From Dipteris shenzhenensis (lineage: Eukaryota): 64,000 bases of DNA. This document shows positions 118 to 63,476 of this stretch, in pieces. The DNA lies in the NCBI GenBank assembly GCA_047967505.1, contig CM106538.1, one strand, 5' to 3'. A model generated the notes under the pieces. It was not told where the DNA came from. It made no database searches and worked only from the letters and a program-made list of their open reading frames with translations. Within the stretch, counting starts at the first letter, position 1. Every line of letters begins with the position of its first letter. The position numbers were made by a program, and so were the translations under genes.

Positions 118-344
118 CATTGCGCTTGTTCTTAGTAAATCCCAAACCCACCATGCTTGTTTTACCTTTTATAGCCACTAGAATTTTGAGCAAGAATCTT
201 ATTTGTCGCTCTTGTTCGTGATAGTTCTACTCTTAGTTGTAAGAATTCAAATTTGTATTCAACATTCTTCTTGATACTTTCTTCTCGTAAGTCCCTTTCA
301 TTCTTTTCCTAAGTCAAATCTTATTTGTCGCTCTTGTAAGAATT

Positions 345-2340: not shown

Positions 2341-2382
2341 TGATCATGTCAAAAACTTGTTGATTCTTACAGGGAATTAGTC

Positions 2383-4870: not shown

Positions 4871-5119
4871 TACAATCATAAGTGCATGATGAAACACTGA
4901 GATTTCCCAGCTTGCACTATGGTTGAATCTGATGATGTCCTTGCACTAGGGCATGACTGCACTAATGCATAAAGCTAGCACAATTGTGCTGACTATAGTC
5001 TCCTACAACCTCAAAGGCCATAGAGCGCACAACCTCCGACAAGCAAACAAAGCACCTTCTTCGACAAACTTCTTGCTCCAATCACACCGCCGCACTTCAA
5101 CTCTGACTGCGCTCCAAAG

Positions 5120-6030: not shown

Positions 6031-6382
6031 CTATTTGTTATATTGGGCCCTTCATTCATAGATTATATTTGGTTATGTTTATCTATCATTTTGATATAAT
6101 ACAAAAGGAAAATTGGGTCTCCTTAATTCTCATTTTTAGTCTTCGCTGTTTTGTGGCCAATGCAAATAACGGAAATAACAAAAGGGAGAAAGAGGAAGCA
6201 TTTTCTTACCTGGAAAAGTCCCAAACCGTGTTTTGTGGACTGGCCCTATTTGTTATATTGGGCCCTTCATTCATAGATTATATTTGGTTATGTTTAGCTA
6301 TCATTTTAATATAATACAAAAGGAAAAGTGGGTCTCCTTAATTCCTCCTTAATTCTCATTTTTAGTCTTCGCTGTTTTGTGG
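5940..6382. repeat. ~215-bp tandem duplication
   Basis: GGCCAATGCAAATAACG...GTCTTCGCTGTTTTGTGG occurs at 5940-6156 and again at 6155-6382. Confidence 0.9.
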
Positions 6383-23204: not shown

Positions 23205-26200
23205 ATCTAGCAACTAAAACTAGATGCGGAGTACATGAATGTTTGTGCAAAGTATTGTGTCCATCGGATATGATTTGCATGGTCGATCATGCATTATACA
23301 CCGTTTTCCCCCTAGTGTTATGCACCACCATAAAAAAACATAGTCCTAGGTGTATTATTCGAATAAGAACTTATCGTATGGGCATGAAACTTTGCATGCA
23401 AGTCCATACCATCTAGGTTGAGGTGTGTGCAAAGCATTATTCCCATCACCTATGCTTTGAATGGTCGATCAAGAATTAAACATTGTTTTTGCCTTAGTGT
23501 CATGCACAACCATATAAAAACATGGTCCTAGGTGTGTTATTCCAGCATGTACACTTATTGGATGGCCGTTTCACTTTTCAAGAATGTAAATACCACATAG
23601 ATTGAGGTGCGTGCAAAGTATTATGTCCATCAAATAGGCTTTGCATTATCAATCAAGCATTAAACACTGTTTTTGCCTCAATGCCATGCACAACCATATA
23701 AAAACATGGTCCTAGGTGTGTTATTCCAATAAATACTTATCAGATTGGTGTGCCACTTTGCAAGCATGTAATTACCACCTAGGTTTAGATTCATGCAAAG
23801 TATTGTGACCATAGGATATGATATGCATGGTCGATCATGCATTATACACTGCTTCCCCCTTAGTGTTATGCACCACCATAAAAAAACATAGTCGTAGGTG
23901 TGTTATTCAAACAAGAACTTATTGTATGGGCACACAACTTTGGATGCAAGTCCATACCATCTAGTTGAGGTGCATGCAAATTATTTCGCATATCGCATAT
24001 GCTTTGAATGGTCGATTAAGAATTAAACATCGTTTTTGCCTCAGTGTCAACCACAACCATATAAAAACATGGTCCTAGGTGTGTTATTGCAGCATGTACT
24101 TATCGGATGGGTGATCCACTTTGCAAGCATGTAAATAACACCTAGGTTGAGGTGTGTGCAAAGTATTATGCCCATCAGATAGGCTTTGCATTGTCCCATC
24201 AAGCATTAAACACTATTTTTGCCTCAATGTCATGCACAACCATATAAAAACATGGTCCTAAGTGTGTTATTCCAACAAATACTTATTGGATGGGCATGCC
24301 ACTTTGCAAGCATGTAAATAACACCTAGACTGAGATGTGTGCAAATTATTGTGTCCATTGGATATGATATGCATGGTCGATCATGCATTATACACCATTT
24401 TTCCCCTAGTGTTATGCACCACCATAAAAAAACATAGTCCTAGGTGTGTTATTCGAACAAGAACTTATCATATGGGTGTGCAACTTTGCATGCAAGTCCA
24501 TAACATCTAGGTTGAGGTGCATGAAAAGTATTGTACGCATCGCATATGCTTTGAATGGTTGCTTAAGAATTAAACATTGTTTTTGCCTTAGTGTCATTCA
24601 CAACCATATAAAGACATGGTCCTAGGTGTGTTATTCCAACATGTACTTATTGGATGGATGATCCACTTTGCTAGAATGTAAATACCACCTAGTTTGAGTT
24701 AGGTGCAAAGTATTGTGACCATCGTATAGGATTTACATTGTCAATCAAGCATTGAGCACCATTTTTGCCCCAATGTGATGCACATCCATCAAAAAACGCA
24801 CTCCTAGGTGTGTTATCCGAACAAGTACTTATCGGATGGCCGCACCACTTTGTATGCAACTCAATACCATCTAGTTGGAGATGCATGAAAAGTATTGTGT
24901 CCATAGGATATGATTTGCATGCTCAATCACACATTATACAACATTCTCCTCCTAGTGTTATTCACAACCATCAATAAAAGCGCTCCCAGGTGTGTTATCC
25001 GAACAAGTACTTATGGGATGGGCATGCCACTTTGTATGCATGTCAATATAACTTGCATAGAGACCTGTGCAAAGTATTGAGGCCATCGGATATGGTATGC
25101 ATGGTCAACCAAGCATTAAACTCCGCTTTTGCCTTAGTGTCATGCACAAGTGTCAAAACACACTATCCTAGGTGTGTTATTCCGACAAGTACTTATCAAA
25201 TTGGCGTACCACATTTCATGCAGCTTAATAACACCTATGTTAATGGCATGCAGAGTATTTTTCCCATCGGATATGCTTTTCATGCTCGATCATGCATTAT
25301 ATACTGTTTTTCCCCTAGTGTTATGCACAATCGTCAAAATGCACTCCCAGGTGTGTTATTTGAACAAGTACTTATGGGATGGGTGCACCACTTTGCATGC
25401 AAGTAAATACCACCTAGGTTGAGACACGTGCAAAATATTGTGCCCATTTGACATGCTTTACATGGTCGATTCTCGCATTAAACAGCGTTTTGGTCTCGTT
25501 GTGATGCACATCCGTCAAAAACACATTTCTAGGTGTGTTAACCGAACACCATCGGATATGATTTATATGGTCAACCAAGAATTAAACATCATTTTTGCCT
25601 TAGTGTCATGCACAACCATATAAAAACATGGTCCTAGGTGTGTTATTTTAATAAGTACTTATCAAACGGGCATGCCACTTTGCAATAATGTAAATACCAC
25701 CTAGGTTGAAATGAATACAAATTATTGTGTCCATCGGATATGATTTGCATGGTCGATCACACATTATACACCGTTTTCCCCCTAGTGTTATGCACCACCA
25801 TAAAAAACGTAGTCCTAGGTGTGTTATTCGAACAAGAACTTATCATCTAGGCATGAAACTTTGCACCCAAGTCCATACCATCTAGTTTGAGGTGTGTACA
25901 AAGTATTGTGTCCATCTCATGTGCTTTTAATGGCCGATCAAGAATTAAACATCGCTTTTGCCTTAGTGTCATGCACAACTATATAAAAACATGATCCTAG
26001 GTGTGCTATTCCAACAAGTACTTATCGTATGGGTGCTCTACTTTGAAGCATGTAAATACCACCTAGGTTGAGGTGCATGCAAAGTATTGTGCCCATCGGA
26101 TACGCTTTGAATTGTCAATCAAGCATTAAACACCGTTTCTGCCTCAATGTGATGCATATTCGTCAAAAAACACGCTCCTAGGTGTGTTATCCGAACAAGT

Positions 26201-28740
26201 AATTATCGAATGGCTGCACCACTTTGCATGTAAGTCAATACCATCTATTTTGAGATGCAAGAAAAGTATTTTGTCCATCAGATATGATTTGCATGCTCAA
26301 TCACGCACGTTTTTCTCCTAGTGTTATTCACAACCATCAATAAAAGTGCTCCCAGGTGTGTTATCCGAACAAGTACTTATGGGACGGGCATGCCACTTTG
26401 CATGCACATCAATATAACATGAATAGAGACCTGTAAAAATTGTTTAGGCCATATGATATGATATGCATGGTCCACCAAGCATTAAACTCCGCTTTTGCCT
26501 TAGTGTCATGCACAAGCGTCAAAAACACTATCCCAGGTGTGTTATTCCAACAAGTACTTATCAGATTGGTGAGCCACATTTCATGCAACTCAATACCACC
26601 TAGTTTGAGGTGCATGCAAAGTATTGTGCCCATCGAATATGATTTTCATGTTGGATCACAAATTATGTATTGTTTTTTCCCTAGTGTTATGCACAACTGT
26701 CAAAAAACGCACTCCCAGGTGTGTTATTTGAACAATTACTTATGGTATGGGTGTTCCACTTTGCATTCAAGTATATAACACGTAGGTTGAGGTTAGTATA
26801 AATTATTGTGACCATTTAATATGCTTTGCATGATCTATTCTCGCATTAAATAGCGTTTTTGCATCACTGTGATGCACATCCATCAAAAACATGCTTCTAG
26901 GTGTGTTATCCTTACAGGTACTATCAGATGGATGCGTAACTTTGAACCCAAGTTAATACCATCTAGGTGGAGATGTGTGCAAAGTATTGTGTCCATAGGA
27001 TATGATTTGCATGGTCTACCACGCATTATACATGGCTTTCCTCCTAGGTGTGTTATCCGGACAAGTACTTATGGGATGGGCATGCCACTTTGCATGCACA
27101 TCAATATAACATGAATAGAGACTTGTGAAAATTATTGAGGCCATTGGATATGATATGCATGGTCGACCAAGCATTAAACTCCGCTTTTGCCTTAGTGTCA
27201 TGCACAAGTGTCAAAAAACACTGTCCTTGGTGTGTTATTCTAGCAAGTACTTATTGGATTGGTGTGCCACATTGCATGCAACTAAATACCACCTAGGTTG
27301 AGGTGCATGCAAATTATTGTGCCCATCAGATATGATTTGCATGCTCGATCACTCATTATGCTCCGTTTTTCCCCTAGTGTTACGCACAACTCTAAAAAAA
27401 CGTGTCCCAGGTGTGTTATGCAGACAAGAACTTATGGGATGGGCACGTCACTTTGCGTGAAAGTAAATACCACCTAGGTTGAGGCACGTGCAGAGTATTA
27501 TGCCCATCAGATAGGCTTTGCATTGTCGATTAAGCATTAAACACCGTTTTTGGCTCAGTGTGATTCACATCCATAAAAAAACATGCTCCTAGGTGTGTTA
27601 TCCGAACAAGTACTTATCGGATGGGTGGACCAATTTGCACCGAAGTCAATACCATCTAGGTTGAGATGCATTAAAAGTATTGTGTCCATTGGATATGATT
27701 TGCATGCTCGATCACACAATATACATCGTTTTCCTCCTAGTGTTATGCACCATCGTAAAAAACGCACTACCAAGTATGTTATCCAAACAAGTACTTATGG
27801 GATGGGCATGCCACTTTGCATGCAGGTCAATACAACTTGAATAGATGCTTGTACAAAGTATTTTGTCCATCATATATGATTTGCATGGTCGACCAAGCAT
27901 TAAACTCCGTTTTTACCTTAGCGTCACGCACAAGCATAAAAAAAGATTGTCCTAGGTGTGTTATTCCAACAAGTACTTATCGGATTGGTGCATAACATTG
28001 CATGTAACTCAATACCACCTAGTTTGAGATGTGTGGAAATTATTGTTCCCATCAGATATGCTTTGCATGCTCGATCACACATTATGCTCTGTTTTCCCCC
28101 TAGTGTTATGCACAACTCTAAAAAAACTCACTCCCAGGTGTGTTATGCGAACAAGAACTTATGGGATGGGCACATCACTTTACATGAAAGTAAATACCAC
28201 CTAAGTTGAGGCATGTGCAAAGTATTTTGCCCATCGGATAGGATTTTCATTGTCGATTAAGCATTAAATACCGTTTTTGTCTTAGTGCAATTCACATCCA
28301 TAAAAAAACACGCTCCTAAGTTTGTTATCCCAACAAGTACTTATCGGATGGATGCAATCCATTGCATAAGTAAATACCACCTAGTTTGAGGTGAGTGCAA
28401 AGTATTGTGCCCATTGGATAGGCTTTGCATTGTTGATTAAGCATTAAACATATTTTTTTCCTCAGTGTGATTCACATTCGTAAAAAAACATGCTCCTAAG
28501 TGTGTTATTCCAACAAGTACTTATCAGGTGGATGCAAGACATTGCATGCAACTCAATAACACCTAGGTTGAGGTGCATGCAAAGTATTGTGGCCATCAGA
28601 TACGATCATGCATTATACACCGTTTTTTTCTTAGAGTTATGCACAACGGTAAAAAAATGTGCTCCCAGGCATGTTATTTGAACAAGTACTTATGGGATGG
28701 GTGCACCACTTTGCATGCGAGTATATACCACCTAGGTTGA
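23205..28740. repeat. Tandem satellite, ~182-bp monomer, ~30 copies
   Basis: CCTAGGTGTGTTATTCCAACAAGTACTTAT anchor recurs at ~23345, 23527, 23711, 23894, 24074, 24257, 24439, 24621, 24804, 24986, 25168 and onward. Copies are diverged, with a few internal deletions (~25548, ~27045). Confidence 0.95.
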
Positions 28741-31700: not shown

Positions 31701-34700
31701 TAGGCTCAATTGGGTGACCGACCAAGTCTGCCCAAAACGATCGACTAGGGGTCAGCCCGAAATAAGCCACCGACCATACGATAGAACCGATGCACAAAAT
31801 AGAGCAACTAACCTATGGTCTCCATTCAGCCCAGAGCCATCCGAGATCATTTGAGGCTGCAAACGGGCCCTACAACTTGAGAGTGGGTTGCCCCAAAAAA
31901 TGCTCCATCTACCCTCAGTGCGGTCAGTCAAGGGATGCCTTCCCACACTTGCATGTAGCCTAGTTGGCGGTGTGCCAACTCTATCTGAAGCCGTCCAGCC
32001 ATCAGGCCACACATGGCCCCCATCTGGTGTCCAAACCAAGACCTACTGGATAACCGAGCTACTCAAATGCCTTCTCCTCATATGGGGGGCTTACAAGTAG
32101 AGATAGCTAGTTCCTGCGTAGTTACACAAGAGTGGAGCATTGATATCTAACCACCCCCCTCAATGTCCACCCGCAAGTGAACTTACTTTTTTGGCCCAAT
32201 GCCAAGTCGATGAAGATGCCTCTCCAGCAAGTCTCTTCCAAGAGCCTTCGTGAAGATGTCCGCAACATTCTCTGTAGTCGGACAGTACACCAAGTCGACC
32301 TCTCCATCCATGATGAGCTCACGTACAAAGTGATATTGAATCTCGATGTGTTTTGTGCGAGTGTGGAACACCGGGTTCTTTGCAATCGCCATGCAACTCT
32401 GATTATCACATGATAACTGTGTAGGCTTGTTCTGCACTGCACCCATGTCCCCTAAAATCCCCCTTAACCACACTGCCTTGCAAGAAGCAAAGCATGCAGA
32501 TTTGTACTCAGCCTCGGTAGAAGAAAGAGCAACTGTGGGTTGCTTCTTGCTGACCCATGACACAACTCTAGATCCAAGTGAGAAACAGTACCTTGTCACT
32601 GATCTCCTGCTGTCCATGTCTCCTGCCCAATCTGAGTCACAGAATCTGGTCAAGATGTTGCCCTTGGTATAGGTGATGCCATAATCAAGTGTGCCTTTGA
32701 TGTATTTCAGCACCCGCATCCCTACCCTCCAATGGTTCTCCTGAGGCTTATTGGAAAACCTGCTTAGTACACCAGTTGCAAAACTGATGTCTGGCCATGT
32801 GTTGCACAGGTAAATCCAGCTGCCCACAAGCCTTCTATACTTCGCTTCGTCCACCAGTGGTGATGAATCCTCGTTTGAGAGCTTCACGTCAACCTCCATA
32901 GGGGTACCAACTCTCTTGCACTCAGCCATGCCAAATGCCTTCAGTATCTCTCCAGCATACTTCAGTTGTGAAATGAAGATCTGTTTCGGCTCCTGCAAAA
33001 CTTCAATCCCCAAACAGAAATGCATCAGTCTGAGGTCTTCCTAGCAAATGCTTCATCTGCGAGATCTTCTCTTCATGGTTCCCTATTATGATAGGGTCAT
33101 CCACATAAAGGACCACGATCATACACCTGCCTCCTTCTTTGAAGATATACAAATTTGCATTAGATGGCTCCTCCTGAACCCATTTTGTAGAAAGTAGGCA
33201 TCAATTCGCTGGTACCATGCTCGTGGGGCCTGTTTCAGCCCGTAAAGTGCCTTCTTCAATTTGCAGACTTTACCTTCTGAACCGGGGATCTCAAAACCTA
33301 GTGGTTGTTCCACGTATACCTTGTCCTTGAGATCTCCATTCAGAAAGGCAGATTTCACATCCATCTGAAACACGGGCCAACTTCCCTGGGTAGCTAAAGC
33401 CAAAACACTGCGAATTGTGGTTAGTCTAGCTGTGGGAGCAAAATTATCTTGATAATCAAAACCATGTACCTGTGCAAATCCTTTTGCCACGAGATGAGCC
33501 TTGTACTTATCCAACGTGCCGTCGGGCTTGTACTTGGTCTTATACACCCACTTGGTTCCAATTACCTTGTGTTTTGGTGGTCGATCCACAAGGTCCCAAG
33601 TGTTGTTCTTCATTATGGAGCCATACTCCAATTGCATAGCCTCCATCCACCTATCATCACCCTGTGCCTCTTCAAGACACTTGGGTTCATCAGCATGGAT
33701 CACTTCTGTCATCAACGCGTAGTTGACCAAGTGTTCTTACGCCTTCTTTGCTCCTCTAATCTCTTGGACTGACGGTGTTCGGATGGTTCCTCCTCAATGG
33801 CTGGGGGTTCTCTGCCATCCAAAAGTTGCTTTACCCACTTCAAGAATGGTTGTTGCCGTTGTGGTTCTATAGGCTCTTCTTCTTCTTTGTCTTGAATCCT
33901 CCCAAGCACCATTGGGGGAGTTCGGTTTGCTATTGGTGGCGGAACTGGATGGATATCCTGGTCTTGGTTGTCTGGGAAGGAAGCATCCTCCTCCAATTGA
34001 TGCGGCTGTTCTGAGAAAACCACATCGCAACTTACAATTATCTTCTTGGTAATAGGGTTATAGAGACGGTAACCCTTCGCCTCTTCACTGTAGCCCAAGA
34101 AAATACACTTCGGCTCTTCGGTTCCCATTTGGTCTTGGTAGCATCAGGGACATGCACAAAACAGTCACATCCAAAAACTCTGAAATGTGCAACTGAAGGT
34201 TTCTTACCAAAACAGGCTTGCAGTGGAGTCATCCTGTTCACAGCCTTTGTGTAGCTATGATTCAGGATGTAAACTGCAGTGTTACATGCTTCAGCCTAGA
34301 AAGTCTTTGGCAAATCTTTCCCTTTCATCATACTCCGGCCCATTTCGCTAATGACGTGCATCTTGCATTCTACTACTCCATTTTGCTGTGATGTATGTGG
34401 CGGGGGTTTCTGCCTCTTGATTCCGTGACTTTTGCAGTAACTTTTGAATTCAATTGATGTGAACTCTCCACCTTTGTCTGATGTCAATTTCTTCACCTTC
34501 TTCCCCGTTTCTTTCTCGACCATTACATGCCATTCCTTGAACCTACTAAAAGCCTCGTCTTTAGTCTTTAGGAAGTATATCCATATCCTTCTACTGTAGT
34601 CGTCGATCAACGTCATGAAGTAGTAGGAACCACCCAAAGTTTCCGTCTCCATCTGTCCGCAGAGGTCCATGTGAACGAGCTTTAGAAGAGCCTTTGCCCT

Positions 34701-37584
34701 ACTGGCCTCTTTAGGAAAGGGATGCTGATGCTGCTTGCCCATCATGCAAGCTTCACATACATCGGGTAGATCTGAAATTTTTGGTAGGTCTGTAATCATT
34801 TCACTTTTATGCATCTCCTTCAAAGAACTAAGGTTTAGATGACCAAAACTCTCATGCCATGGCTTAGTGTTCTTCACATCCGCTCGAGCACTGAAAGCTG
34901 AGAGTTCATAAATGTTGTTGCACCGTGTACCTATACCACCGACCTTTCCTTGAAGATCCAGAATCTGTGCACCATTCTTATCGAATCGATCTTTGAGGTC
35001 CCAATCCGTGATCGTAGAAATGGACAACAAGTTCCTCTTGATATCTGGCACATAAAGAACATCGGATAACTATTTTACAGCTCCATCTAACTTGAGAGCA
35101 ATCATACCTCTTCCTTTTGCTGGACATTTTGCATCATTGCCGACTGCTACTAGGATGTCATTCCCTACCGGCTGTAGAGAGGTATACCAATCCTTCTGAC
35201 TGGCCATGTGGTGCGATGCACCACTGTCAATGATCCAAGGTTCATCCGCAGGTACATGAACTGCCTCCGTGCAAATCTCCTCAATTGCTATAAACAGCTC
35301 TATTGGTGTTGTCTGTGTGCTATTGTTGGACTCTTTCTTTACTCCATTCTTCTCATCTGCAATCTTCTTTCAGCACTCATTCTGCTTGTGCCCTGCCTTG
35401 TTGCAATAGCAGCACTTGATCTTCTTCTTTCTCTTTTTATCATCAGAAGAAGATGGGTTACCAGAGTCCTTACCCTTACCTTTCTTTGATCCAGTCCACA
35501 AAGTCGAATCTTCTCCAGTCCTCGTCTTTTGACGCATCTCCTCCTCCAGAAGCATCGCGCTAAAATCCTCAAAGTTGAGGGGCGGATTTTTGTTCTACGT
35601 ATTCAGCACTGTAACAAGACCATCGTACTTTGGTGGGAGAATCCGTATGCACCTTCTTGCTAGATTCTCGCTCGTGATGGTGATGCTAATCGCAGTCATG
35701 TGATCGTGTAGATTCTTCACCCTGGTGATGAACTTCTCTGCCGCTTTAGACTCAGACAACTTCTCATTCGCGAGTTGAGTCTCCAGATTCTGAATTTGCA
35801 TCTGATTCATGGTCTCGTACTGATTTTTTAAGACCGTCCATGCATCCTCCATTGTGGTGACATGTCGAATTAACGCCATGACGGAATCACTAACACTGCA
35901 GACAATAGAACACATCGCATCTGCATTTCTTCTTGTCCACACGAGAATGTCATCAATAGTTGGTACTATCTGTTGTCCTGCATTGGCTGGATCCGATCTC
36001 GCAACCAGCCTCATGTCCACCCCAGTAGCAGTGTCCCAAAGCTCGTATGCACTTAGGATGTTCTTCATCTTGAACTTCCAGAGTGGATAGTTCGAGCCAT
36101 CAAACTTTCCTCTTTCCCCGAATGGTGGGATTCGCAGTCTTGCGGGCTGGGCCATCTCTCACAATCTGCTCGCAAACAGAAACACACTACCAAATCTTCT
36201 TGCTAGAGTCCAGGCTCTGATACCATGTAAGAAACTAATACAACATCTGTGCTCAACAGATAATAGGATCTCGTATGCAAGAGAGAAAACAAGATAGTAT
36301 GGAGAATAAAAAATATGATTACTATAGAACTGATACAATAGATGGCACTACCTCCCAACCGTGTGCTCCTATGAAAGAAGCTTTGATGGCATGCTAGAAA
36401 TAGTAGAAGACGGAGGCTAGATGCTTAAGGAATCAGGGTTGTTGTAGCCAGTGATGAAATGGGCTTCATGGGCTTGATCTTATATAGCCACTACTAGTCG
36501 TAGTCGGTTAGGCTCAATTGGGTGACCCAGTCCACCCAAAACGGTCGACTGGGGGTCAGAGGCCACCGACCATACGATAGAACCGGTGCACAAAACAGAG
36601 CAACTAACCTATGGTCTTTGTTCGGCCCAGAGCCATCTGGGATCATGTGAGGCTTCAAAGGGGCCCCGCAACCCAAGAGTGGGCTGCCCCGGGAAATGCT
36701 CTGTCTACCCTCAGTGCGGTCAGTCAAGGGATGCCTTCCCACACTTGCATGTAGCCTAGTTGGCAGTGTGCCAACTCTATCTGAAGCCGTCCAGACATCA
36801 GGCCACACATGGCCCCCATCTGGTGTCCAAACCAGGACCTAGCAGATAACTGAGCTACTCAAATGCCTTCTCCTCATATGGGGGGCTTACAAGTAGAGTT
36901 AGCTAGTTCCCGCGTAGTTACACGAGAGTGGAGCATTGATATCTAATAGAAACTGTGACGATTCTCAAAACGAACAATATCCAAATAATGAGATAAATTA
37001 ATGCAAGAGCTAACCTCATTAAGGCCGAGACACTTGTATCCAACCACCCATACTTTGCTCGCAGATTCAAGATTGAGAGACGAGCCAATAGTTTTGACAT
37101 CCTAGCACCCTCATACAGTTGTGTTGATTGCAACCCTCACATATTGGCCTCAGACTCGGACATCACCTGTACATGTGATGTAGTGCCCCTAAAAATTGAA
37201 TCCATCATGTCCACCATACCCTCGTCATCATCTGGCACATCCGGGAGACTATCATCTTGCTCAAAGTATGAAGGTATATGCACACCCTTGCCACCCTCTT
37301 CATCCTGTCTGAAGGTTTCGTGCCATGTATGCATGCATTATAAATCACAAACTCAAATAGCATTGACTTACTGATGATCCATCACCACGTGCACCACCAA
37401 TGGTGGGTATTGGTGTAGGCTCCTCCCCATACATCTGCAAGTGGTGTATGACAATATGGCATTGATGTCGTACTTGCAATGAGTGCAATGACAATACAAC
37501 CTCTCCATAAGCCACTATGTGCTCTTAGGCGTTGGTGCATCATCTGATGGGCTTCCACTTGGAGCTTCCACTCGTCCCTTCCAT
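28745..37584 (-). pseudogene. CACTA/EnSpm TnpD-type transposase pseudogene (multi-exon), interrupted by a copia element
   Basis: Fragments LGLATDDVNPF, WPIVLVNHNIPPWL, NMDVYMAPLIEQLQILWRGV, WTIHDYPRYG, HLLDPMHIFKNV, LSGLKSHDWH, EKHFPSSIMTTQVHLLVHIVDEV..GTVHSRW, ASMVEGWLVQESL (Transposase_21/DUF4218-type motifs). GT-AG introns, many stops. Confidence 0.9.
31422..36948 (-). mobile_element. Full-length but degenerate Ty1/copia element
   Basis: LTRs 31422-~32152 and 36226-36948 (~725 bp, many mismatches). TSD GAAAC at 31417-31421 and 36949-36953. PBS GCTCTGATACCA 36214-36225. PPT next to 32153. Broken gag-pol 36155-32183 with KFDGSNYPLWK, CCYCNKAGHKQNEC, SDKGGEF, QMDVKSAFLNG, ADIFTKAL. Confidence 0.95.
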
Positions 37585-43676: not shown

Positions 43677-43892
43677 AACATTAGTGGGGCAAAGCAGAGC
43701 TTGTTGTGGCCCTGTTTAGCCCCACTAATGTTTGTTTTTAGTTCTATTAAGGGTCGCTATATAGCGACACTTTTCCAGTGTCTCTATATAGCGACCTTTA
43801 CCAGAGTTGCTATATAGCAACGCTTATATAGCGACATATCTTTTTTGACATTAACAACGATGTAAATAGGGACTTTTGTGCCCATGTGTAGG
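43677..43892. mobile_element. Probable right end of the CACTA element (hairpin, subterminal palindromes, degenerate TIR)
   Basis: 15-bp stem AAACATTAGTGGGGC/GCCCCACTAATGTTT (43677-43733), four GTCGCTATATAGCGAC variants (43753-43835), and ...CCCATGTGTAGG at 43881-43892, one base short of a canonical ...GTAGTG end. Confidence 0.55.
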
Positions 43893-44080
43893 AAAGGTCA
43901 GTATTTCCATCGGAAAATGGCTTATTCTTTTTAGTGAAAGCATAGGAAAAAAAATTTGGAGAAGAAAGAAAAATACTTGGGCTTGGTCATTGATGGTATG
44001 GATATAAAAAAAATCATGCTACCTCACTTCATCCGCACTCCAAAAAATGTGAAGGAGGAAAACTTCATCCAATTGCATGC
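43893..44080 (+). pseudogene. Fragment of Sola-like/DUF7869-type transposase, paralog of ~60960-61145
   Basis: KYLGLVIDGMDIKKIMLPHFIRTPKNVKEENFIQLH aligns with KYITIIIDGMDQKKTNLPHFKQVPKDLKEENFITYH at ~61036-61144. Confidence 0.75.
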
Positions 44081-45421: not shown

Positions 45422-47510
45422 TGCGGGGGAAGAGGGAGCACTCAAGAAGGGATCAGAGACACCGTATATGGTGGAGCAAAGGTTACTCCAACTTATTCCT
45501 CTATCATATATATATGAGGCACTGTACAAGTGGGCGGGCACATTGCCCTTTACCCCAACAATCTCCCACTTAAAGGCAGTGTGCCTTTAAGGGAGTATAG
45601 TACACATACAATACAATCAGCCATATTCTAAAAAACAAGATGGCCAGACCGTTATCCTATGCCCATTGGCACTCTATAATGTGCAAAGTGCATAGAGGAT
45701 AAGCTGCTAGCAAACATCAGGTTTGCAGGATAGAAATGACAAGCTCTAGATGCTTGTCAACCAAGATCTCATGCCAGATCTCACTGGGAGAGTGAACTCT
45801 CACCACCATGTGCTCCTGTGCTAAGTTCATAGCACCCAAACTGTCACTGTGTAAAGAAGATGTCTTTGTACCACCTGTGACCACCATAAGCATATGTCCT
45901 GTAGTAGACCTCTTCTAGTCTACCCAACCTGCATCACCTACATGTAGCTCCTGGAAGCATAAGGACCTGAAGTCCACAACCGCCTCCCTACTACCAAAAT
46001 CTGCCATAATCATGCTACCAACTCCCATTGCAACGAAAGTAAGAATTGGAAGTGTAGCCCCAATGGCAAACATGTGAGAACCAAGTCTCAACCCAATCAT
46101 GGATGCATGATATACTATGGCTGCCATTGCAACCATAACCTACAGCTCAACTCATCTGTGATCGTCAAACCTGCTGTGTTTCAAGTATGGAGCCATTGCA
46201 GGCAATGGAGCACTCAATAACTTCCCCCTCTCCATATTGAAACAACCAAGTATTTGAAGACAAACATCATCAAGACCATGTAGCTCCCACTGCAAAGCAT
46301 CCCTGTCCATAAAGGACCATATGGCAAGTAACCTCAGAAGAATAGCAATGTCCTGAATACTGAGACCATAACCTGTCTCACTGCACATCACATCTTGAGC
46401 TCTCATAACGGTATCAAACCTATGAAGCCAATCTCGAGGGGATTGCTTCTGGCCATGGAGGCACTTACGAAGCAAACATATTAATGATTCCTGCCCATGC
46501 GCAATATGACCTGAGTCAATAACTACAGAAACCACATCTGTCCTGGCATAACTAGCCAATGGATCATACTAGGCATCATTAGCCAAGGTGTCCTGCTCAC
46601 CATGCATAGCCTGACCTCATTAGCAAGAGGTACTCCACATCCTCGAAACTATAACTGTCCATAGAAGATGCATCAACAATCTCCATAGGAGTATAAACAT
46701 GTGGAATCCTTAAGACATTTGACCATCTCTAGCCAAAATCAGGAAGTAATCGTGGTTGTCCCAACTTTATAACCTGCTCATTGTGGGAAAAACCTCCCAC
46801 TGCAAGGGATATGGACTGCCCCTGTAAACAATTTGGAGGTAACTCTGCACTTACACCCTCTTGGAACACCACTCTCCTGCTATCCATAGTCTTGGGTTGT
46901 TTAAGCATAGCATCCTCTCTGAAATAGACATCATGGCTGTGTATCAGCTCTTTAGCTAAGGGATCCCATAACTTGTAGTCCCTGTTGGACTCACTATATC
47001 CAAGGAAGACACACCTCCTCAATTTGGATCCAAATTGTGTGTGCATATCTCTTGAACCATGAGCATAAGCCTCGCAACCAAACACATGTAAATGCTCATA
47101 ACATGGTGCCCTGCCTATCAAGAACTCAAATGGCACTCTACCATCCAGAGATCTCCTGGGGGACCTGTTAAGCAAGTATGCAGCCACCTTACATGCCTCA
47201 GCCCAATAGCATTCGGTAAGACCTGCATATCGTAGCATGTTGCCAATCCTGTCCAATAAAATCCAATGTATGCCTTCTGCAAAGTCATCATGAGTAGAAT
47301 GAGGAGGGGTGGTCAAATCCCTCCTGATACCATGTGTATCACATAGATGCTGAAATCTCGGAGAGGTAAACTCTCTATCACCATCAGTCATCAAGCTCAA
47401 TAGCTTCTTTCCTGACTGATTTTCAGCATTACCCAAGAAGCGTTGAAATGTACCATATACATCATGCTTCTGATGAATCGGATATACCCATATGTACTGT
47501 GTAGCTGAAT
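45422..47510 (-). mobile_element. Degenerate, internally deleted copia element (integrase core, RT/RH remnants, PPT, probable 3' LTR 45422-45560)
   Basis: ORF 46729-47598 has WVYPI..K.DV..F..F, TDGDREF, YWAEACKVAAYLLNRSP, HVFGCEAY, CVFLGY..YKLWDP. 46152-46559 is a collapsed RT. The 3' hairpin and PPT (CTCCCACTTAAAGG...CCTTTAAGGGAG) are nearly identical to 9624-9657. Confidence 0.85.
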
Positions 47511-47741
47511 CTGGATCAATGTGGAAAAGCTGTGCATAGATAATAGGTGGCGGTTGGAGGCAGATGACAAGTGGCAACCTATAATTAAAAGAGAACAAAG
47601 CAAATACATATTTAAAAAACCTTGTGAAGCTTGTTCAAAGTGACAATATTAAAATGCCAAAAGAAAGGGCTACACACTTTGACATAAGAAAAGGGATACT
47701 TGAAAGCTTGCATATTATGTGCATGGTAGTAAAAGTGTGCT

Positions 47742-49625: not shown

Positions 49626-50120
49626 CATCTTCCCGAAACTACAACCCCCCAGTTGTTTCGATCATCTTTTTGCCAATCCATCTCCTTCCTCGTGATCCTT
49701 TTCTTCTTGCTTCCTCCTTCTCGCATTAATTCTTTCACCCCCGCTTCATCATTCAGGAAAGTTTCTCTCCTTCCTGCTCTCTCTCGTACACGTTTCTTTC
49801 CGAGTTTCTCGAGCACCTACACGACCACAGCCCTTTCGAATCCGCACGAAGCTTGAGGTGCGCTAGTGTGGATAGAGCCATTGCACGTTTCGTTTCGTGG
49901 AGCATCGTACTTACACAGCTCCGTGTGCTTCTCCAGATACACAGCTACAACTCTTGCTTCGCCAATCCGTCAAGGCTGTAGCGTAGCGTGGAGCTAGTGT
50001 GGATAGAGGAAAGTGTCGTACTCACAAAGCAACCAGGTGGCGCACACTAAGTTTTCGTCCAGTGCAGGTGACGCTGGTTTTTACCTCTGCCTCGTCCTCA
50101 ATTCTCAGCATTTGTAAAAT

Positions 50121-51058
50121 ATGCTGCGTGCACGATCTCCCTTCCGCAAACCGAGTAACATGTCCGATTCCGAGTCTGCGAGTTCATTTTCGTTACGGGA
50201 AAATACCCTGGAAAGATTTCCAAAGGGAGCCGCCACAGATGTGAGTCCAAAAGATGTCATGATGTTCCACGACGGCAATTCCAGGATGCGCTTTGAAGGC
50301 GATTTCCTTGCAGAGCAGCTGGTAGTGCAAGGCCATATGCAATTGGAGAGTCACAGTCTCACATGCTCGCGCCCCTTGGCGTCCCCTTCGAAGCTAGCAC
50401 CTTTTGCTTTTGGTTGCGCGCAACCACAAGAGGCCCTCTCAGAGTCCTCCGAAACAGAAGATGATTTTATCAGCGACAATCAGTTGGCGGTATGGCATCG
50501 AAACACAAGGACATCCATCCCATTGGGTGTGTCATTTGCGAGCAACGAGCTAGGATCTGCTCCGCCACCACATTTTTTAGATGCATGCTTTTCCTGCAAG
50601 AAAAGGCTGGGACCGCGAGTAGACATATTCATGTACAGGTACGCCATGATTTAAGGATTTGAAAGCCTTTCTTGCAAATTCCTTGGTTATACAAGCAAGC
50701 ATCAAGGCCTTCAGCTTCGAAGTGTGAGAATGCTCTTGGGAAGCTGTCCTTTCCTGCCCTGAGTTGCAGTGTTCGTTTAATAGGAAATTTAAGATTCGGG
50801 CTGCAGCAGGAGCAGCAGGAGTATTTGCTTTTACTTGGCATGTGGAACATCGTTCTTATCTATTAAAATGATTCCTTGCTTTGTGATAGGGGAGACACAG
50901 CCTTCTGCAGTCATGAGTGTAGAGAGCTTCAGATGAGGCTTGATGAAAGGAGAGAGCAAGTTTCTCACACATCTCAAATGAAGGCAAGCAGCGTGTCAAG
51001 TCCTGTTCGTCATGCAAAGAATGGGAAGAGCGTTGTTCCAACACCTGCTATTGTATAG
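50121..51058 (+). CDS. FLZ: FCS-like zinc finger (FLZ/DUF581, senescence-associated family) protein, 2 exons (50121-50638, 50890-51058), 228 aa
   Basis: Spliced domain HFLDACFSCKKRLGPRVDIFMYR|GDTAFCSHECRELQMRLDE matches CX2C-X17-19-FCSX2C. The GT-AG intron splits the R codon at the position typical of plant FLZ genes. No stops or frameshifts. Confidence 0.95.
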
Positions 51059-52501: not shown

Positions 52502-55129
52502 CATAAGTTCATCTGTATGCGTACGCATGTATACAGACATTTTTTTGTACGCATTCCATACGGCTTTCCATATGTGACTTTTTAGGGGGGAGGAAAATCG
52601 AGATCCGAACCTTATAACCTAATTTGACGTCCTATTTTTATTCCTTACGTGTCGTTTGTGAAGGACCTCGAATCTTGAGAAAGGTTGTATGTCCATGACC
52701 TGACTCTCTGACCTGCAAACTGACCTTGCTGCCTCAAGAGCCTATATAGGCAGCCCTTTGCTCTCTTCTTTAGCACACAGTCCTGAGTCCCGACTGCCCT
52801 CAGCCCTTCACTCTTGAGTTTATGCAGCCTCTACCTGCTTTGGAGGTCAGTGGTCACCATACAGTTGTAGCCCGCAGTCTACCTCTATGCTCTACCTACT
52901 CCAAACATGAAGGTAATTGTAATGGCTGCTCTCTTTTCCTATTTCGTAGCAAGTTCTCTCTCTTTAGTTGATGCCAGATAACATGGTAGCCTGCAGGGGC
53001 TTCAAGCCCTCTTTGGAAATTGTTCCTTTGCCCAATGCCTTATTTGCCCTCTTTTGCAACTTTGTAGCTTGTAGATCTGCAAATGGGAAGAACAAAAGGA
53101 CCAGAATGGGAATTTGTAGAGGCCTTAAAGCCTTTCGGGAAGGGCCAATACACTTGTAAATGTAAATATTGTCCTCATTCATGGGATGGAGGACTAACCC
53201 GTATAAGGGCCTGTTTTCTTTGGCTTGGGGGTTGACAAGTGTACCGCTTACTTGTTGAAGATTACAGGCAAAGGCGGCTCTGAAAACTGTTGCAAAATAG
53301 CTTGATAAAGATGTGGCTGATTTGGGAGATGCCTTAGTGAGTGGTACTACAAGTGGAAATGCATATGTCAGTGCATATGAGTCAAAGCAAAAGATGTCAA
53401 AGAGAGCCTTGGCCAAGGCATGGGAGTCACAGGCACGGAAGGATGCATACATTGCTCTTTGTCGTTTTTTCTTTCCAAAGGATATTTGTTGGTACATGCT
53501 AACATGATTGTGGCATTTGTTACCCAGAAACACACCGTGTTAGCAATGTATAGAAAATTCAGCAAGATCGAATTGGTGAAGCCAGCACAAACACGGTTTG
53601 CTTACATGTTTATCATGTTAACAAACTTGTTGAATGAGAGGGTATACAATGGATTGCGCCACATGGTTGTCAGTGATGAGTATTGCATGAAGAAGGTGTC
53701 ACACACTGTGAAAGCACAATAGGTGTCTTCTATTATATTGGGTGCTTCATTTTGGCAAGATGCAAGACTCATTGTGAATCTTTGTGCACCTATTTTGAAG
53801 ATCCTTCGCTTGGCTGATAGGGAAGGGGATACCATGGGACTTGTACATGAGTTCACTGATCGGATGGTCGAGAAGATGGCAACTATTGATGGGATTGACT
53901 CTGCTAGAGCCTTGTGTGTTGACAGGTGGGATATGATGCATTCTCCATTGCATGCGGTAACTTTTGTTCTCCATCCTATTTGGAGAGAGGAAAATCTAGA
54001 TGGTGACAAGGAGGTGCATGATGGGTGGATGGATGTCATAGAGTGGTACACCAAGTACGATGTTGACAGCCAGGGCACCTTATGTGATGAGTTGGATATT
54101 TACAAATCCATGTCAGGCACATTTGCTCATGCGATTGCAAAGGATGAAAAGAGAATGCACCAAGGGGTGAAATGGTGGGAGACATTTGGAGCTCACACAC
54201 CAAATTTGCAGTGGTTAGCTCTTCAAGGCACATGTGCTTCTCCTTGTGAGAGGAATTGGAGCACATCCTCTCTTATCCATACTAAAAGAAGGAATAGGAT
54301 GCTTCCAAAGAATACCAAGAAATTAGTGTACATCCATACTAATTTGCGTCTCATTTCCAAAATCAAGGAAAGGGGATTTGAGAAGATAGACGTGACCCTG
54401 GAAATGATCAATAAGGAGAAGGATGATGATAGGCTGCTAGCAAGGCAAGCATATACAGAGGGAGAAGACATTCCAGCCCCTATTGTTACACTTACAAGAA
54501 TGATGGATGTTGCTACAGCTTCAAGCAGCTCTAGTCTTTTGGAGTTCCATGGTGAGGCAGATGAGGATTTGATGCAGATGATGATGAGGATGAGCAAGAG
54601 GATAAGGATGAAGATACAGCTTGAGGCTTGAGCCTCATCAGTTGTGAATTGTCATGCATGCTTTATTTCCGGGCTGTGGCACACTGGCAACCTTTTCTTT
54701 ATGATGTTTTGCCTTTCATGTTTTGGTGTAGTTACTAGTACTTAATTCCTTTGATCATGATGTTTTGGTGTAGTATTGATGATTAATCTATGATCTATGA
54801 TTCCATCATTTGACACTATGTATCAAAATCTAGAATCTAGATGACTATGGTTTCTGGAGGCTAGAGTCTTTCATGAATGATGAATCATGACTCATGAGTG
54901 ATGACTTTAAAATTAATACAAGTTTCAAGTTTCAAGCTGGAAGTTTAATACCTCTATGTCAATTTAATGTGTACAATGATCAATCTATATTTTTTTGAAA
55001 ATTTTGGGTAAAATTAGGGTCATGTATAAACCTTTCAGTATGTTTCAGCCCTAGGGGTTGAACCATACTCCAATCATACTTCCGTACTCTTATGATGTAT
55101 GCATATGGTGACTTATGGAAAAAACTATG
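52502..55129 (+). mobile_element. hAT DNA transposon, internally deleted
   Basis: 8-bp TSD ATTCCCAC at 52494-52501 and 55130-55137. Imperfect TIR CATAAGTT.../...AAACTATG. Encloses hAT transposase remnants. Confidence 0.88.
53300..54631 (+). pseudogene. hAT transposase pseudogene (C-terminal half incl. dimerisation domain)
   Basis: ELVKPAQTRFAYMF, FWQD..API.KILRLAD, DRWDMMHSPLHA, WWETFG..PNLQ..TCASPCERNWS..IHTKRRNR...KLVYIHTNL. In-frame TAG at 53720-53722; the central catalytic region appears deleted near 53490. Confidence 0.9.
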
Positions 55130-57083: not shown

Positions 57084-57395
57084 AGGGTTTTTTTCCAAGT
57101 AAAAATCATATCTTTAAGAAATCTTATTTAGGAGGCCACTAGGACCCTAGCAACCATGCCCATCATTTTTATGCCCAAAAAACCCCTGCCAGCCCAAAAT
57201 CTGACATCATGCGACCAGAGCCCAGTTTCTACTGGGCTCCTGCAGAAACTGGGCTCCTACATCATGATGTCGGATTTTGGGCTGGCAAGGGTCTTTTGGG
57301 CATAAAAATGATGGGCATGGTTGCTAGGGTCCCAGTGGCCTCCCAAAAAATATTTCTTAAAGATATGATTTTAATATGTGAAAAAACCATAACCT
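57084..57395. repeat. ~310-bp foldback (inverted repeat), copy 1
   Basis: AAAATCATATCTTTAAGAAAT...GACCCTAGCAACCATGCCCATCATTTTTATGCCCAAAA...GAGCCCAGTTTCT pairs with AGAAACTGGGCTC...TTTTGGGCATAAAAATGATGGGCATGGTTGCTAGGGTC...ATTTCTTAAAGATATGATTTT. Confidence 0.92.
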
Positions 57396-57546: not shown

Positions 57547-57760
57547 ATCTTATTTTTCATTCCCTAAATCAAATTTGGGAGGCCTCTGACACCCTAGCAA
57601 GGATGTGCATCATTTTCAAGCCAAAGACCCCCTGGAAACCCTAAATTCAACATCATGTGACCAAGCCCTATTTCTACTGTTTTTGGCTTGAAAATGATGG
57701 ACATGGCTGCTAGGGTGTCAGAGGCCTCCCAAATTTGATTTAGGGAATGAAAAATAAGAT
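57547..57760. repeat. ~215-bp foldback, copy 2 (related to copy 1)
   Basis: ATCTTATTTTTCATTCCCTAAATCAAATTTGGGAGGCCTCTGACACCCTAGCA pairs perfectly with TGCTAGGGTGTCAGAGGCCTCCCAAATTTGATTTAGGGAATGAAAAATAAGAT. Confidence 0.92.
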
Positions 57761-59177: not shown

Positions 59178-60009
59178 GGTTAACGCCTGTCGATGATATC
59201 ATCGACCGAGCTATGTGCATGCACTCAAAGCGAGGCGTGGCGAATCTGAGGAGCGCGGAAAAAAAGAGGTTGGGGAGGGTAGGAGAATCGAAGGGAAAAT
59301 CAGTGGGGGATCTAGGGGAAGATGAATATGGCAAGAAGAAGAAGCTCCCTTTAGTCCAAAAGAATTTAAACAAATGCATGAGGAGATGGAGATCTTACCT
59401 AGCAAAGCTAAAGAGCTGAGAGGGGTAGACTCATAGAGGGAGAGATGGAGAGGTTAGAGGAACTAACAAGAAGGGATTGGGGTAGAGTATAGAGTAATTT
59501 ATTTTTAGAAATGTTTCTTGCTATTTTTAGTGAATTGGATAGACTAGCAATCAAAGCAATGTGTATTCAAAAAATCAAATATAAAGTACTTTAGATCATA
59601 TTCAAACACACCACCCCCATTTTTAAAATATGGTAAATTAGAGTGAAGCACACCGTAAAACTTGATTTCATGACCAAATTAAAAATAAAAAACGCTTAAC
59701 CATAAGAAAATTGCACATACCTGGTGATTCTTTGAACTCTTGGGCGTATTTGGAAATAATGAGAAACAAATGTGGGAATCTCATGTTTAGAGAGAAAAGT
59801 TTCTACTTTTAGAAATTTCTCTATGCTCAAAACTGTAAACCTAGCCTTGAATTTCATGGTCAGGCATATAATTTCCATCTTTCATTGTTGCATGGCACTT
59901 TTGCGGCATCCCCTTTGAAGCTTTCCAAAGTTCTGCATTGGAGGTTCATTCAACACTACGTCTATCTCAATTTCTTCTTCTCATAGTTCGAAGGGCGCTT
60001 CCTTTGCTA

Positions 60010-62300
60010 CATTGGATGTATCTTGTACTAGTGGTGGAACCTCTTTGGCCACCTTGGATGTGTCTCCTACTCCTTCACATAAGCATGATGGTGGACATAG
60101 AAGCCCAAGTACTCAAATCCATGGACCTAATATTCCCAGTGAACAGAATGAAATAATAGATGTCAAAGCAAGCACTAGAGATCAACAAGTGTTATCAAGT
60201 ATGTGGTCCATGTCTAAGTTCATTCAATGGCTCTCTTTGTTTTGTTTTTGGTGCTAGAAATTATTTCTTACAAAAGACATCTAATCTAGATGGATCTCAA
60301 TGACTATCTTAGCTATCACAAAAGGGGAAGCGGAAGTCAATCTCATCTATTGAGGAGAGACTAAAGGGAAGACCAATGAATGTGGACCTCAAAAATTCTA
60401 GGTACACAAGAGGGAGAGCTCTTATAATGCTAGACACCGCACATCTGAAAGACGTGACCTGCAATACTCTTTGTTGTAGCAGAATGTGCCTGGTCACTTT
60501 TGGGGTTGCAAAATTAAGGGTGTTACAGCAAAATTATGTTGAAATGAATAAAGATTATCAAAATTTTTATTTAGCATGGTCTTAGGGAAAACAATATGAA
60601 CAAAATTGTGTTTGAGTACTCATTCGATTCAAGGATTGTTTGTCACAAAGCATATAGACTTGCACATTTTCTTGGCAACAAAAGGCTAAAAAGATTACAG
60701 GCTCGCGCACTTACTAAGATAATTTCTCCAAGCATGAGATCCATTCCATGTACAAGGATGCCATGGTTATTGCAGGTGATGAGTACATTACATACCAGCA
60801 TTTTTGTAGGATTTGGAAGACTTGAAGGCCTTGTGTAATAGAAGTTAAGGACAAGGAGAGGTGTGTGTAATGATGCCATGAAATTTTGCTTCGTTTTGAT
60901 AAAAATTGTTTGCTTACAACATCTAATCATTTTCTATATTTGCAGAAGAAGCAATCGCCAAATGCATCGAGAAATGCAAGCTCTAGAAAGGAAGAAGTTA
61001 GTAAAGCATTGCAAGAAGAGCTACCAATAGCCTAATAAGTACATAACCATCATCATTGATGGGATGGATCAAAAGAAGACAAATCTTCCACACTTCAAAC
61101 AAGTGCCCAAGGATTTGAAAGAGGAGAACTTCATCACATATCACGCAGTTCGATGCATGATCTACCATGGTGAATTAATCCCCAAGGTTTATCTGCTGAT
61201 GACACCAAATGTAAAAAATGATCCTAATCTCACAATTTCCATTCTTAATGATGCATTGAGGAATCTTACAAAACATCTTCCAAAAGTGTTGTATGTCCAA
61301 CTTGATAACACATCAAGAGAGAACAAAAATAAAGTTGTGTTGGCATATCTTTGCATGCTTGTGGAGAAAGGCATATTTCTGAAAGTGAAAATAGGATTCC
61401 TTATAGTGGGTCACACTATGACCATATTGATCAGATGTTTAGTCGGTTCTCAGTAAAGCTAAGAAGGAAAGAAGCATGGGGTGAGGATGCAATGATCCGC
61501 ATTTTATAGGATGCATATGTGCCAAAACCGATAATTGCAAACATGGAAAAAACAATAGATTTTAGACGCTTTATGTTTGGTGACAAACAAGCGAATTGAT
61601 CGATGTATTGAGAAGGTCAACGAGTTAAGCTTTCAACACCAATTTCGAATGAATAAAGATCAAGAAGGCACGATGTTGTTGTGGGGGAAGTCCTATTCCA
61701 CATCACCGACTTGGGTTCCAATCAAAGGATTGAAGTTCTTGAAGTGTGTTCTAGAGCATGAGTTGTATGTGGCACCCTTACAACCTTTACAATTAGTGAG
61801 GGAGTTGCAACGAGCCATGAAGGAGGGGAGACATGTAAACCCTATAAGTTCAGTCAATGAGATTAGAGAAACAATCCAGCATGCTGCAACATATTTTGAA
61901 GATGTGGCATGGACATGGTGGAATCCATTCTTTGTATCCCAAATACATATCAATAACCTATTAAATGACCCCAAGATGTGTCAGATTTTAGTTGGCCACA
62001 ATGCATTGAACAAGATTTTGTAAATGCGTGTATGAATGCTTCTTTAAGTGCACATTTACATGCACCTTCAAAGAAGAACTATCTTGGGGAGGAGAGAGAA
62101 TTGAACCTTGGAGCAAGAAAGTCCAAAAAGGCCAGGGAAAGGGTTCAAGAAATGTGGAGTGGTAGCATCGAGGACTTAGTAGTGGATATGATGGTTGCTA
62201 TGTTAGCAAGAGATGATCCTAGTGGATTTCCTTTTTGAATTGCTAAATTTGTGAAAGTCAAAAAGGAAGGTTCAAACACCAAGTGAATAGAGGTGCATTG
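60010..62300 (+). pseudogene. Sola-like / DUF7869-type DDE transposase pseudogene
   Basis: CCSRMC...YL...VCHKAYRLAHFLGNKRL, then IIIDGMDQKK, DPNLTISIL, PKVLYVQLDNTSRENKNKVVLAYL..LV, and FLIVGHT[+1 nt]HDHIDQMFSRFS (frameshift at ~61418). C-terminal PF*IAK...IEVH is cut by an LTR at 62301. Family name is assigned from remembered motifs, not a search. Confidence 0.65.
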
Positions 62301-63330
62301 TGTAGGATCTTGTAGGATAGAATAGATGCATCTTGCAAGAGGTGTGAGAGCACAATCATGAAAGCAATATGGTAGATCTCTATTATGATTGTGTGAGAGA
62401 GGACTCTCTCTTATAAAAAGGGGGAGAAGGTAATACCTTCCCTACATAGTGCCAATCAGCCCCTACATCAGTGGGAGTCAATCCCTACATCAGTGGGATG
62501 GCCTTTGTCTTACATCATCACTTAGGTCACACACTAGACACATCATAGCACTTGATGTGCATTTACAACACACACAAACACACATGTGACTCCCCTAGAT
62601 GCACACATGCACCATAGAGCAAGCCCTTGATCATACTTACCCCAACAAACTCCCTCTCAAGGGGTTGCCTCTTGTAGTGTCAAGGATACATCTAGTCTCA
62701 GTTTCTCATGCCATCTCATGGTGGTCAAGGATTAATCTATAGCTAGGATCTCATGCTACCAAGGGTTCCCAAGGGTGTGAGGTTCACAGAAATGGGATAG
62801 TCAAAACACATATCACATGGCCTACATCATATGGTGACCAGAGGTGATTTACATAACACATTATTTTTGGAGTACTACTCCAGGTAGAGAACCTCAAAAT
62901 TTGACCAAGTGATGATAAACAAAAAAAGACAAAGTGCCTAAAATTCATTTTCTTCATTTGCTGATGGAGTTCTTTTTTTAGCCAGATTTGCTTTGTTGTT
63001 GAAGTAGTCCTTCTTCATAAGAAATTCTTGATTCTCTTTGTTGTTCTTCATGGAATAACACATTCCCTTTTCCAATTGTAGGCAAAGGAACAAGATATAT
63101 TTGAAGCACTTCCCTTCATCAATGTGGTTAAAGTATGAGCCACTTAATCCCAAAGCTATGATAGCAAGAGCCTTCTTGTCTTTGATCAACCAATTAGCTT
63201 TTTCTTTTGTAGACTTCTTTCCATTCACAACATTCCATATCTTCTTTTTCATAAGCATAAACTCAGCTTTTGTTTGCCAAGTATGAAAACTAGTTCCATT
63301 AAACTTATCAAAAAAGGTCTTAGCTTCCAT
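62301..63330 (-). mobile_element. Non-autonomous copia derivative: 3' LTR (62301-62647), PPT and short gag remnant (62938-63330)
   Basis: On the minus strand PPT TTGAGAGGGAG precedes TGTTGGG at 62647 and the LTR ends CCTACA at 62301. Gag-like FDKFNGTSFHTWQTKAEFMLMKKKIWNVVNG. No pol between gag and LTR. Confidence 0.7.
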
Positions 63331-63476
63331 GGCAAGGTCTTACCCGAGGTTAGTGTCTAGTGCCTTACAAGTGAAAATATGAGCAATAAAAAATATTCCT
63401 TCAAAGTACAAGCATTTAGTGTAGCAAAGGCTTGCAACCAAATTCCATACTACAAAACATAATGGAAATGATGCTT

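Follow-up and report, generated by a model that had tools for sequence, protein, structure and literature searches.

The window analysed here is a stretch of 64,000 nucleotides from contig CM106538.1 of Dipteris shenzhenensis (assembly GCA_047967505.1). At positions 60352–62310, on the plus strand, it contains a decayed transposase pseudogene, most probably of the Sola1 type (DUF7869), which was delimited with tblastn using seven longer relatives, with a profile of the family, by its frames and stops and by Pfam. In the tblastn comparison this segment is collinear with residues ~88–766 of the relatives, which are 890–908 amino acids long. When the whole window was scanned in six frames with a profile of 14 relatives, the matches were confined to 60593–62235 and 43938–44078, and over 61031–61417 the profile gave an E-value of 1e-62. 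Pfam, to which the preliminary description of this DNA had pointed as a check, returned DUF7869 (PF25273) for the largest open piece, 61031–61456 (E-value=1.6e-28, 100 bits; gathering threshold 26 bits). Two open pieces further downstream extend this match to profile positions 103–129 and 154–191, with 19.7 and 14.8 bits, scores that fall under the cutoff because the open reading frame (ORF) is broken. The region is considered, with a probability of about 85%, to be the dead, truncated transposase relic of a Sola1-group cut-and-paste DNA transposon in a land-plant genome rich in transposable elements.

All three catalytic motifs (D/D/D) are still readable in a stop-to-stop reading of 59–64 kb, which supplied the motif coordinates. 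The first, DGMDQ (61058–61072, plus strand), was placed from the frames, the relatives' alignment and a structural model at beta1 of an RNase H-like core. The second, QLDNTSRENKN (61298–61330, plus strand), matches the consensus sDncagqNkn of the Sola1 hidden Markov model (HMM). The GH[ST] motif and the third Asp lie at 61406–61443 (plus strand), split by a 1-bp deletion at ~61417, so that VGHT is read at 61406–61417 in frame 2 and HYDHIDQMFS at 61414–61443 in frame 1. The first two motifs had been noticed at the outset, as had the need to restore a base near 61418. Two contig sets (X1 and X2), from two studies and one labelled organism, hold 6–8% of the words of this region, and a related X2 contig (depth 85.7) carries one additional base right after 61417, exactly where the -1 frameshift had been placed. 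Upstream, the Cys-rich block CNTLCCSRMC (60460–60489, plus strand) aligns with KSCCANLCLS of P0013, an 890-amino-acid relative, and is the remnant of a conserved N-terminal CC...C region with a putative role in zinc or DNA binding. The C-terminal extension (62071–62310, plus strand), also remarked on beforehand, is homologous to the relatives and covers the first half of a putative BAH-like barrel domain.

The copy is thoroughly decayed. To follow the homology one must switch frame six times (1,2,1,2,1,2,1) and cross at least four in-frame stops, beginning at 61028, 61507, 62236 and ~62290, that at 62236 being a TGA in place of the Trp of a conserved FWIAKV. An internal deletion of ~130 bp lies at 60707–60716 (plus strand): in the family-profile scan ~43 profile positions are absent between 60709 and 60718, and at the joint 60706 to 60717 a ~93%-identical X1 contig has 140 letters against 10 in the window. 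Homology ends at ~62310, ~120 codons short of the relatives' end. The terminal branch of the window row measures 0.62, against a median of 0.039, in a quick tree built from 78 core sequences. The intron proposed in the preliminary description was rejected, since the unaligned gaps are collinear with intronless relatives and equal in length to the residues missing: 124 nt for 38 profile positions at 60822–60947 and 146 nt for ~50 residues at 61942–62089. With its frame changes, stops and deletion, and without detectable ends or accessory ORFs, the copy is capable of none of the functions proposed below for the transposase.

A ~93%-identical contig from another data set of the labelled organism spans the copy together with its upstream flank (59500–61195) at single-copy-like depth, so the locus is conserved between two genomes or copies, as might be expected if a transposase was domesticated and gave rise to a host gene, present or former. 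Here the ORF is destroyed and the related contig differs by indels as well, the surroundings are copia, hAT and satellite debris, the other members of the clade are multi-copy, and the more distant intact relatives are bounded by terminal inverted repeats (TIRs). A host gene is accordingly the least probable of the explanations considered, and a dead transposon remains the preferred one.

The fold was predicted for P0013 from 52 aligned relatives (mean predicted local distance difference test (pLDDT) score 79.1, predicted template modelling score 0.62). The model has the topology b1-b2-b3-a1-b4-a2-b5-a3, in which b1 (349–356) holds D355 with D358 just after it, b4 (430–435) is followed by D436, b5 (462–467) by G471-H472-T473, and a3 (475–490) carries D478. 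D355, D436 and D478 are invariant in 52 sequences. The model was compared with 48,161 chains using VIA-align, and residues ~335–510 matched the cores of SIV integrase (Z 9.5, root mean square deviation 2.7, 129 amino acids), PFV integrase (Z 9.3), Metnase (Z 9.2), Mos1 (Z 9.0), Sleeping Beauty (Z 7.8) and Hermes (Z 6.4). An RNase H fold, the feature which the preliminary description had singled out for a structural check, is thus recognised, with an integrase as its best match. Like the retroviral integrase and Tc1/mariner cores (6rwl, 4bac, 3k9j, 4mdb, 5cr4; Z 7.8–9.5), the family is predicted to have a compact RNase H-like DDD core with no insertion domain; it differs from them in its 6–15% identity, in a third acidic residue that is an Asp in H-x5-D, and in its flanking domains. 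On this model the DUF7869 domain would correspond to the core from beta2 onward. Residues ~206–295 resemble winged-helix domains, among them cullin WHB and RFX5 (Z 7.4); a profile search among PDB sequences found nothing significant, RFX5 being the best at E-value=0.031.

Residues 690–850 were modelled separately from 26 locus translations and are predicted to form a beta-barrel (pLDDT 76.6). The C-terminal part has no Pfam match. VIA-align placed the barrel nearest to the BAH domain of MTA1 (Z 5.9), EBS (5.7), BAH1 of DNMT1 (5.7) and ORC1b (5.5), values below 8 that serve as leads only, and Foldseek gave DNMT1 BAH1 at weak E-values of 4.6e-3 to 1e-2 (probability 1.00). The two programs agree, with weak scores, on a BAH-like barrel, which is offered here as a lead.

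The Sola superfamily, with its Sola1 group, was reportedly described by Bao, Jurka, Kapitonov and Jurka in 2009. For comparison, the HMMER profiles RNase_H_Sola1, RNase_H_Sola2 and RNase_H_Sola3 were taken from the supplement of Muszewska et al. 2017 (PMC5751038), the first having been built from the group E.10 alignment of Majorek et al. 2014. Consensus letters were read at states 5–30 and 57–124 of the 124 of Sola1 (94 states) and at states 17–42 and 69–119 of the 131 of Sola3 (77 states). Residues D436–T473 of P0013 align without a gap to Sola1 states 86–123, which read D n c a g q N k n ... I e l k f l e p g H s; 18 of the 38 positions are identical, including D, N, N-K-N, I, F-L and G-H, and the spacing from D to H is 36 in both. 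The first motif is f D l q k v l s l P in Sola1 and M-D-Q-K-K-T-C-L-P in the family, with one gap. Sola3 has the general RNase H-like layout, with an Asp after a hydrophobic beta-strand, but its second Asp stands in s d n a G c Y h s, where the family has D-N-[TC]-x-R-E-N-K-N, and lacks the N-K-N block and matching downstream states. Because the stretch from the second Asp to GH[ST] matches Sola1 ungapped and with the same spacing, and Sola3 is unlike it, DUF7869 is, as judged from these alignments, very probably the catalytic core of Sola1. The Sola-like DDE/DDD transposase named in the preliminary description is therefore upheld by the fold, the invariant D/D/D and the motif match, and can be sharpened to the Sola1 group.

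With that group the family shares the DDD core, the motifs D-Q-K..L-P, D-N-[CT]-x-x-[QE]-N-K-N and G-H-[ST] at equal spacing, a size of 6–7.8 kb with short TIRs among the relatives, and hosts among cnidarians, other marine invertebrates, oomycetes and non-flowering plants. It differs in the scarcity of 4-bp target site duplications (TSDs), treated below, and in a window copy without ends. The window piece and all tested relatives match PF25273, the latter at E-values of 1e-49 to 1e-63; Pfam, for its part, assigns the domain no function. DUF7869 is not mentioned in the literature searched, and no paper there links it to Sola1; the part of the Majorek 2014 supplement consulted holds no Sola alignment and neither of the strings DGMDQ and PVGHTH. 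To our knowledge, neither a C-terminal BAH-like barrel nor two conserved accessory ORFs have been described for Sola1.

Evidence of mobility comes from metagenomic relatives. Among 347 candidate stretches, 224 encode relatives and 79 loci were retained, many with uninterrupted ORFs of 866–908 amino acids. The intact relatives encode a protein of ~870–910 amino acids with an N-terminal Cys-rich region, a predicted winged-helix-like domain at ~206–295 and a predicted C-terminal BAH-like beta-barrel. When 14 element ends taken from 11 loci are aligned they fall in register: each starts with AACA (mostly AACAC), an inverted repeat of 34–37 bp is common to them, and their flanks are unrelated. Four contigs with both ends, their TIRs beginning AACAC, were counted as complete elements of 6044–7805 bp: L001 (98–7691, 7594 bp), L008 (4642–12446, 7805 bp), L016 (391–8114, 7724 bp) and L048 (177–6220, 6044 bp). 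L016 is flanked by a 4-bp TSD (AACA/AACA); L001, L008 and L048 have none. Multi-copy elements may have received chimeric flanks during assembly, which is an excuse for the missing TSDs and no test of them. In L039 one element of the family is inserted in the transposase ORF of another (1–4040 / 4041–6332), the part at 4041–6332 being 99.9% equal to L012 4209–6500; no TSD was obtained for this nested insertion, the second junction being present in none of the contigs fetched. L058, a 15.5-kb contig, carries two inverted copies of a related element (1–3913 and 9483–13396) that agree at 99.95% over 3914 bp.

The complete elements also contain two conserved minus-strand accessory ORFs, 50–57% identical across lineages. 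In L001 these are ORF2 (522 amino acids, 2429–3997, minus strand) and ORF3 (at least 147 amino acids, 1607–2050, minus strand). ORF2 matches DUF6551 weakly (E-value=0.03), and as a lead Atlas points to DUF3723 (0.92). Identity to the window piece is ~55–59% for the intact TIR-bounded relatives and ~65% for the nearest loci, for which no ends are defined; within the nearest clade (L063, L065, L067 and L078) the loci have a common right boundary, and the left boundary is not its inverse.

Several observations weigh against a Sola1 relic and are gathered here. An inverted-repeat search found no plausible TIR pair around the copy, the profile of the relatives' TIRs has no match in the window, and both accessory ORFs are absent from it. 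With neither TIR, TSD nor accessory ORF found there, the mobility of the window copy is deduced from relatives 55–65% identical to it. The expected 4-bp TSD was seen in one of the four complete relatives. The search for TIRs and TSDs advised in the preliminary description thus drew a blank in the window and succeeded in part among the relatives. The Sola1 match was read by eye from 94 of 124 consensus states and is unscored, with no E-value, and the Sola2 consensus was read at states 1–6 of 218 only. Foldseek found no match to the P0013 model at E≤1e-3, its top rows being RNase HI (E-value=1.8e-3, probability 0.97) and Mos1 (probability 0.93).

Some of these points would suit a relic of a separate, unnamed DDD superfamily that shares short motifs with Sola1, DUF7869 then not being Sola at all: the Sola match is unscored, the Pfam domain is a DUF absent from the literature searched, TSDs are scarce, and the structural neighbours are generic integrase and Tc1/mariner cores. 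Such a superfamily would nevertheless have to share with the Sola1 consensus 47% ungapped identity over 38 states, the identical D-to-H spacing and the first-D/Q-K/L-P motif. Its element size and TIR length would also lie within the Sola range (2–9 kb, TIRs of 11–1124 bp, according to PMC10741241), and its hosts (cnidarians, bivalves, echinoderms, oomycetes and streptophytes) fit Sola. We regard it as unlikely, though it is the strongest of the rivals.

The absence of ends also invites the explanation that the fragment was carried in as a passenger of another element (a long terminal repeat (LTR) retrotransposon, a Helitron or a Pack-type element), especially as retroelement ORFs adjoin it: a copia gag ORF (62941–63339, minus strand), which comes after the lost 3' part of the copy, and an integrase-like ORF (~63.4–64.0 kb, minus strand). 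These ORFs are, however, on the opposite strand and start beyond the end of homology, and the copy retains ~680 of ~890 codons in native order, the N-terminal region included, which is above typical captured fragments. A passenger is therefore very improbable, and the region is best read as what is left of a Sola1-group element.

In an intact element of this kind the N-terminal domains would bind the TIRs, and the DDD triad would co-ordinate two metal ions for excision and strand transfer, which would create a short target duplication of 4 bp. Tethering of the transposase to chromatin may be the role of the BAH-like domain. More speculatively, the streptophyte-associated Sola1 lineage could be a distinct cut-and-paste element in which a BAH-like histone-reader barrel steers integration, much as chromodomains do in chromoviruses, and which has two conserved accessory genes, has been abundant in non-flowering plants and has been overlooked in annotation because the core is listed as a DUF; we think this doubtful, if worth stating.

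Sola elements are described as having a DDD transposase, 4-bp TSDs, a length of 2–9 kb and TIRs of 11–1124 bp; the moss P. patens is a known host, and flowering plants seldom have them (PMC10741241). Other sources report Sola1 in Physcomitrella and Sola in Capsicum (PMC9033089), many SOLA elements in Azolla (PMC6786969) and, among 1007 plant genomes, nine of 3203 recently active TIR clusters assigned to Ginger and Sola together (PMC12973397). The view that Sola lies outside the plant repertoire is therefore dated, and a Sola relic in a plant is not new in kind, since moss, ferns, Capsicum and the 1007-genome survey had already supplied examples.

The relic itself is of little import, being one more dead transposon remnant amid copia, hAT and satellite sequences. 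Two by-products are useful, namely the DUF7869–Sola1 link and the anatomy of the intact relatives. With the former, standard domain scans could recognise Sola1 transposases in thousands of eukaryotic proteins now called "uncharacterized" and exclude these from gene sets, above all for gymnosperms, ferns, bryophytes and marine invertebrates. For studying how Sola elements move, concrete candidates are the intact metagenomic relatives, which have defined TIRs, a set of three conserved genes and possibly a domain that reads chromatin; we know of no biochemical study of Sola elements.

Homologs of the transposase are widespread. A word-indexed search gave 51 at E≤1e-3 among 246 scored candidates, the majority unnamed, and the named ones belong to Riccia sorocarpa, Chara braunii, Ginkgo (Gb_ ids), Nematostella, bivalves, Saccoglossus, Lineus and Patiria. 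In an exhaustive search P0013 was matched by 5604 representative clusters at E≤1e-3 and by 2305 at E≤1e-10, and Atlas cluster labels include Streptophyta, Oomycota and Echinodermata. The quick tree started from 101 rows, of which identical ones were merged; those that failed to span positions 8–120 of the window piece, both Ginkgo proteins among them, were left out. The window row falls within an 11-row clade of unnamed contigs and proteins (Shimodaira–Hasegawa-like approximate likelihood ratio test support 98), whose other members are multi-copy. This clade is nested in a 69-row clade with Riccia and Chara, apart from the animal rows.

The preliminary description had spoken of two diverged copies. 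A second diverged member is indeed present, as an isolated 63-amino-acid fragment at 43890–44078 (plus strand; tblastn and profile scan), so that what stands is one decayed, near-full ORF and a scrap. The fragment includes DGMDIKK at 43992–44012, scores E-value=4.3e-15 with the profile and is 68–70% identical to relatives over 47 amino acids; its DNA resembles the main copy over 83 bp at 71%. Neither tblastn nor the profile scan found anything homologous around it, and it is what remains of another, diverged insertion from the same clade.

From these two copies an abundant, poorly annotated family had been proposed. Summed contig depth, which is no copy number, is 130–720 at the conserved core 61255–61488 and 6–21 nearby and in the flanks, at 80% likeness, and this contrast hints at many related copies in the lineage. 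At 61298 six contigs of one run and nine of the other diverge from the alignment, and they share a consensus in which the family's G-P-L-P-x-I-L-Y-L is encoded.

The remainder of the window is largely debris of transposable elements, of copia, hAT and satellite origin. Copia ORFs lie at 9678–13469 (minus strand), 17666–21880 (plus strand), 32186–36158 (minus strand) and 46732–47634 (minus strand). The first of these is an uninterrupted gag-pol ORF of the Ty1/copia type, 1264 amino acids long, in which Pfam recognises all domains; its best match is 64% identical, and the named matches are all from angiosperms, at ~36–51%. This element is possibly young and from a poorly sampled plant lineage. 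Such matches fit a land-plant host that is probably no well-sampled angiosperm. An ORF with a hAT C-terminal dimerisation domain (53723–54628, plus strand; E-value=4e-6) is the remnant of a hAT transposase. Among 45 ORFs of at least 110 amino acids scanned with Pfam, only one resembles a host gene, a 178-amino-acid ORF (50118–50651, plus strand) with a plant-specific FCS-like zinc finger (zf-FLZ, E-value=6e-10), for which the word-indexed search found no homolog. Rfam gave 0 matches on the window.

Repetitive DNA accounts for the other features recorded. At 23245–28740 there is an array of ~5.5 kb of a 182-bp satellite with a 363-bp higher-order unit, the units matching at 70–77%. The segment 348–2280 is very C-rich (GC 0.68, GC skew -0.59) and is made of 72–92-bp tandem units with an embedded CCTGGCGGCCGCGGCCGCCAG palindrome; the long ORFs it shows in all frames are a by-product of the C-rich tandem units. 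Two near-perfect hairpins lie at 57086–57388 (150-nt arms, 87% complementarity, 3-nt loop) and at 57547–57760 (82-nt arms, 94% complementarity, 50-nt loop); the two are related and have the appearance of foldback repeats or of repeats akin to miniature inverted-repeat transposable elements.

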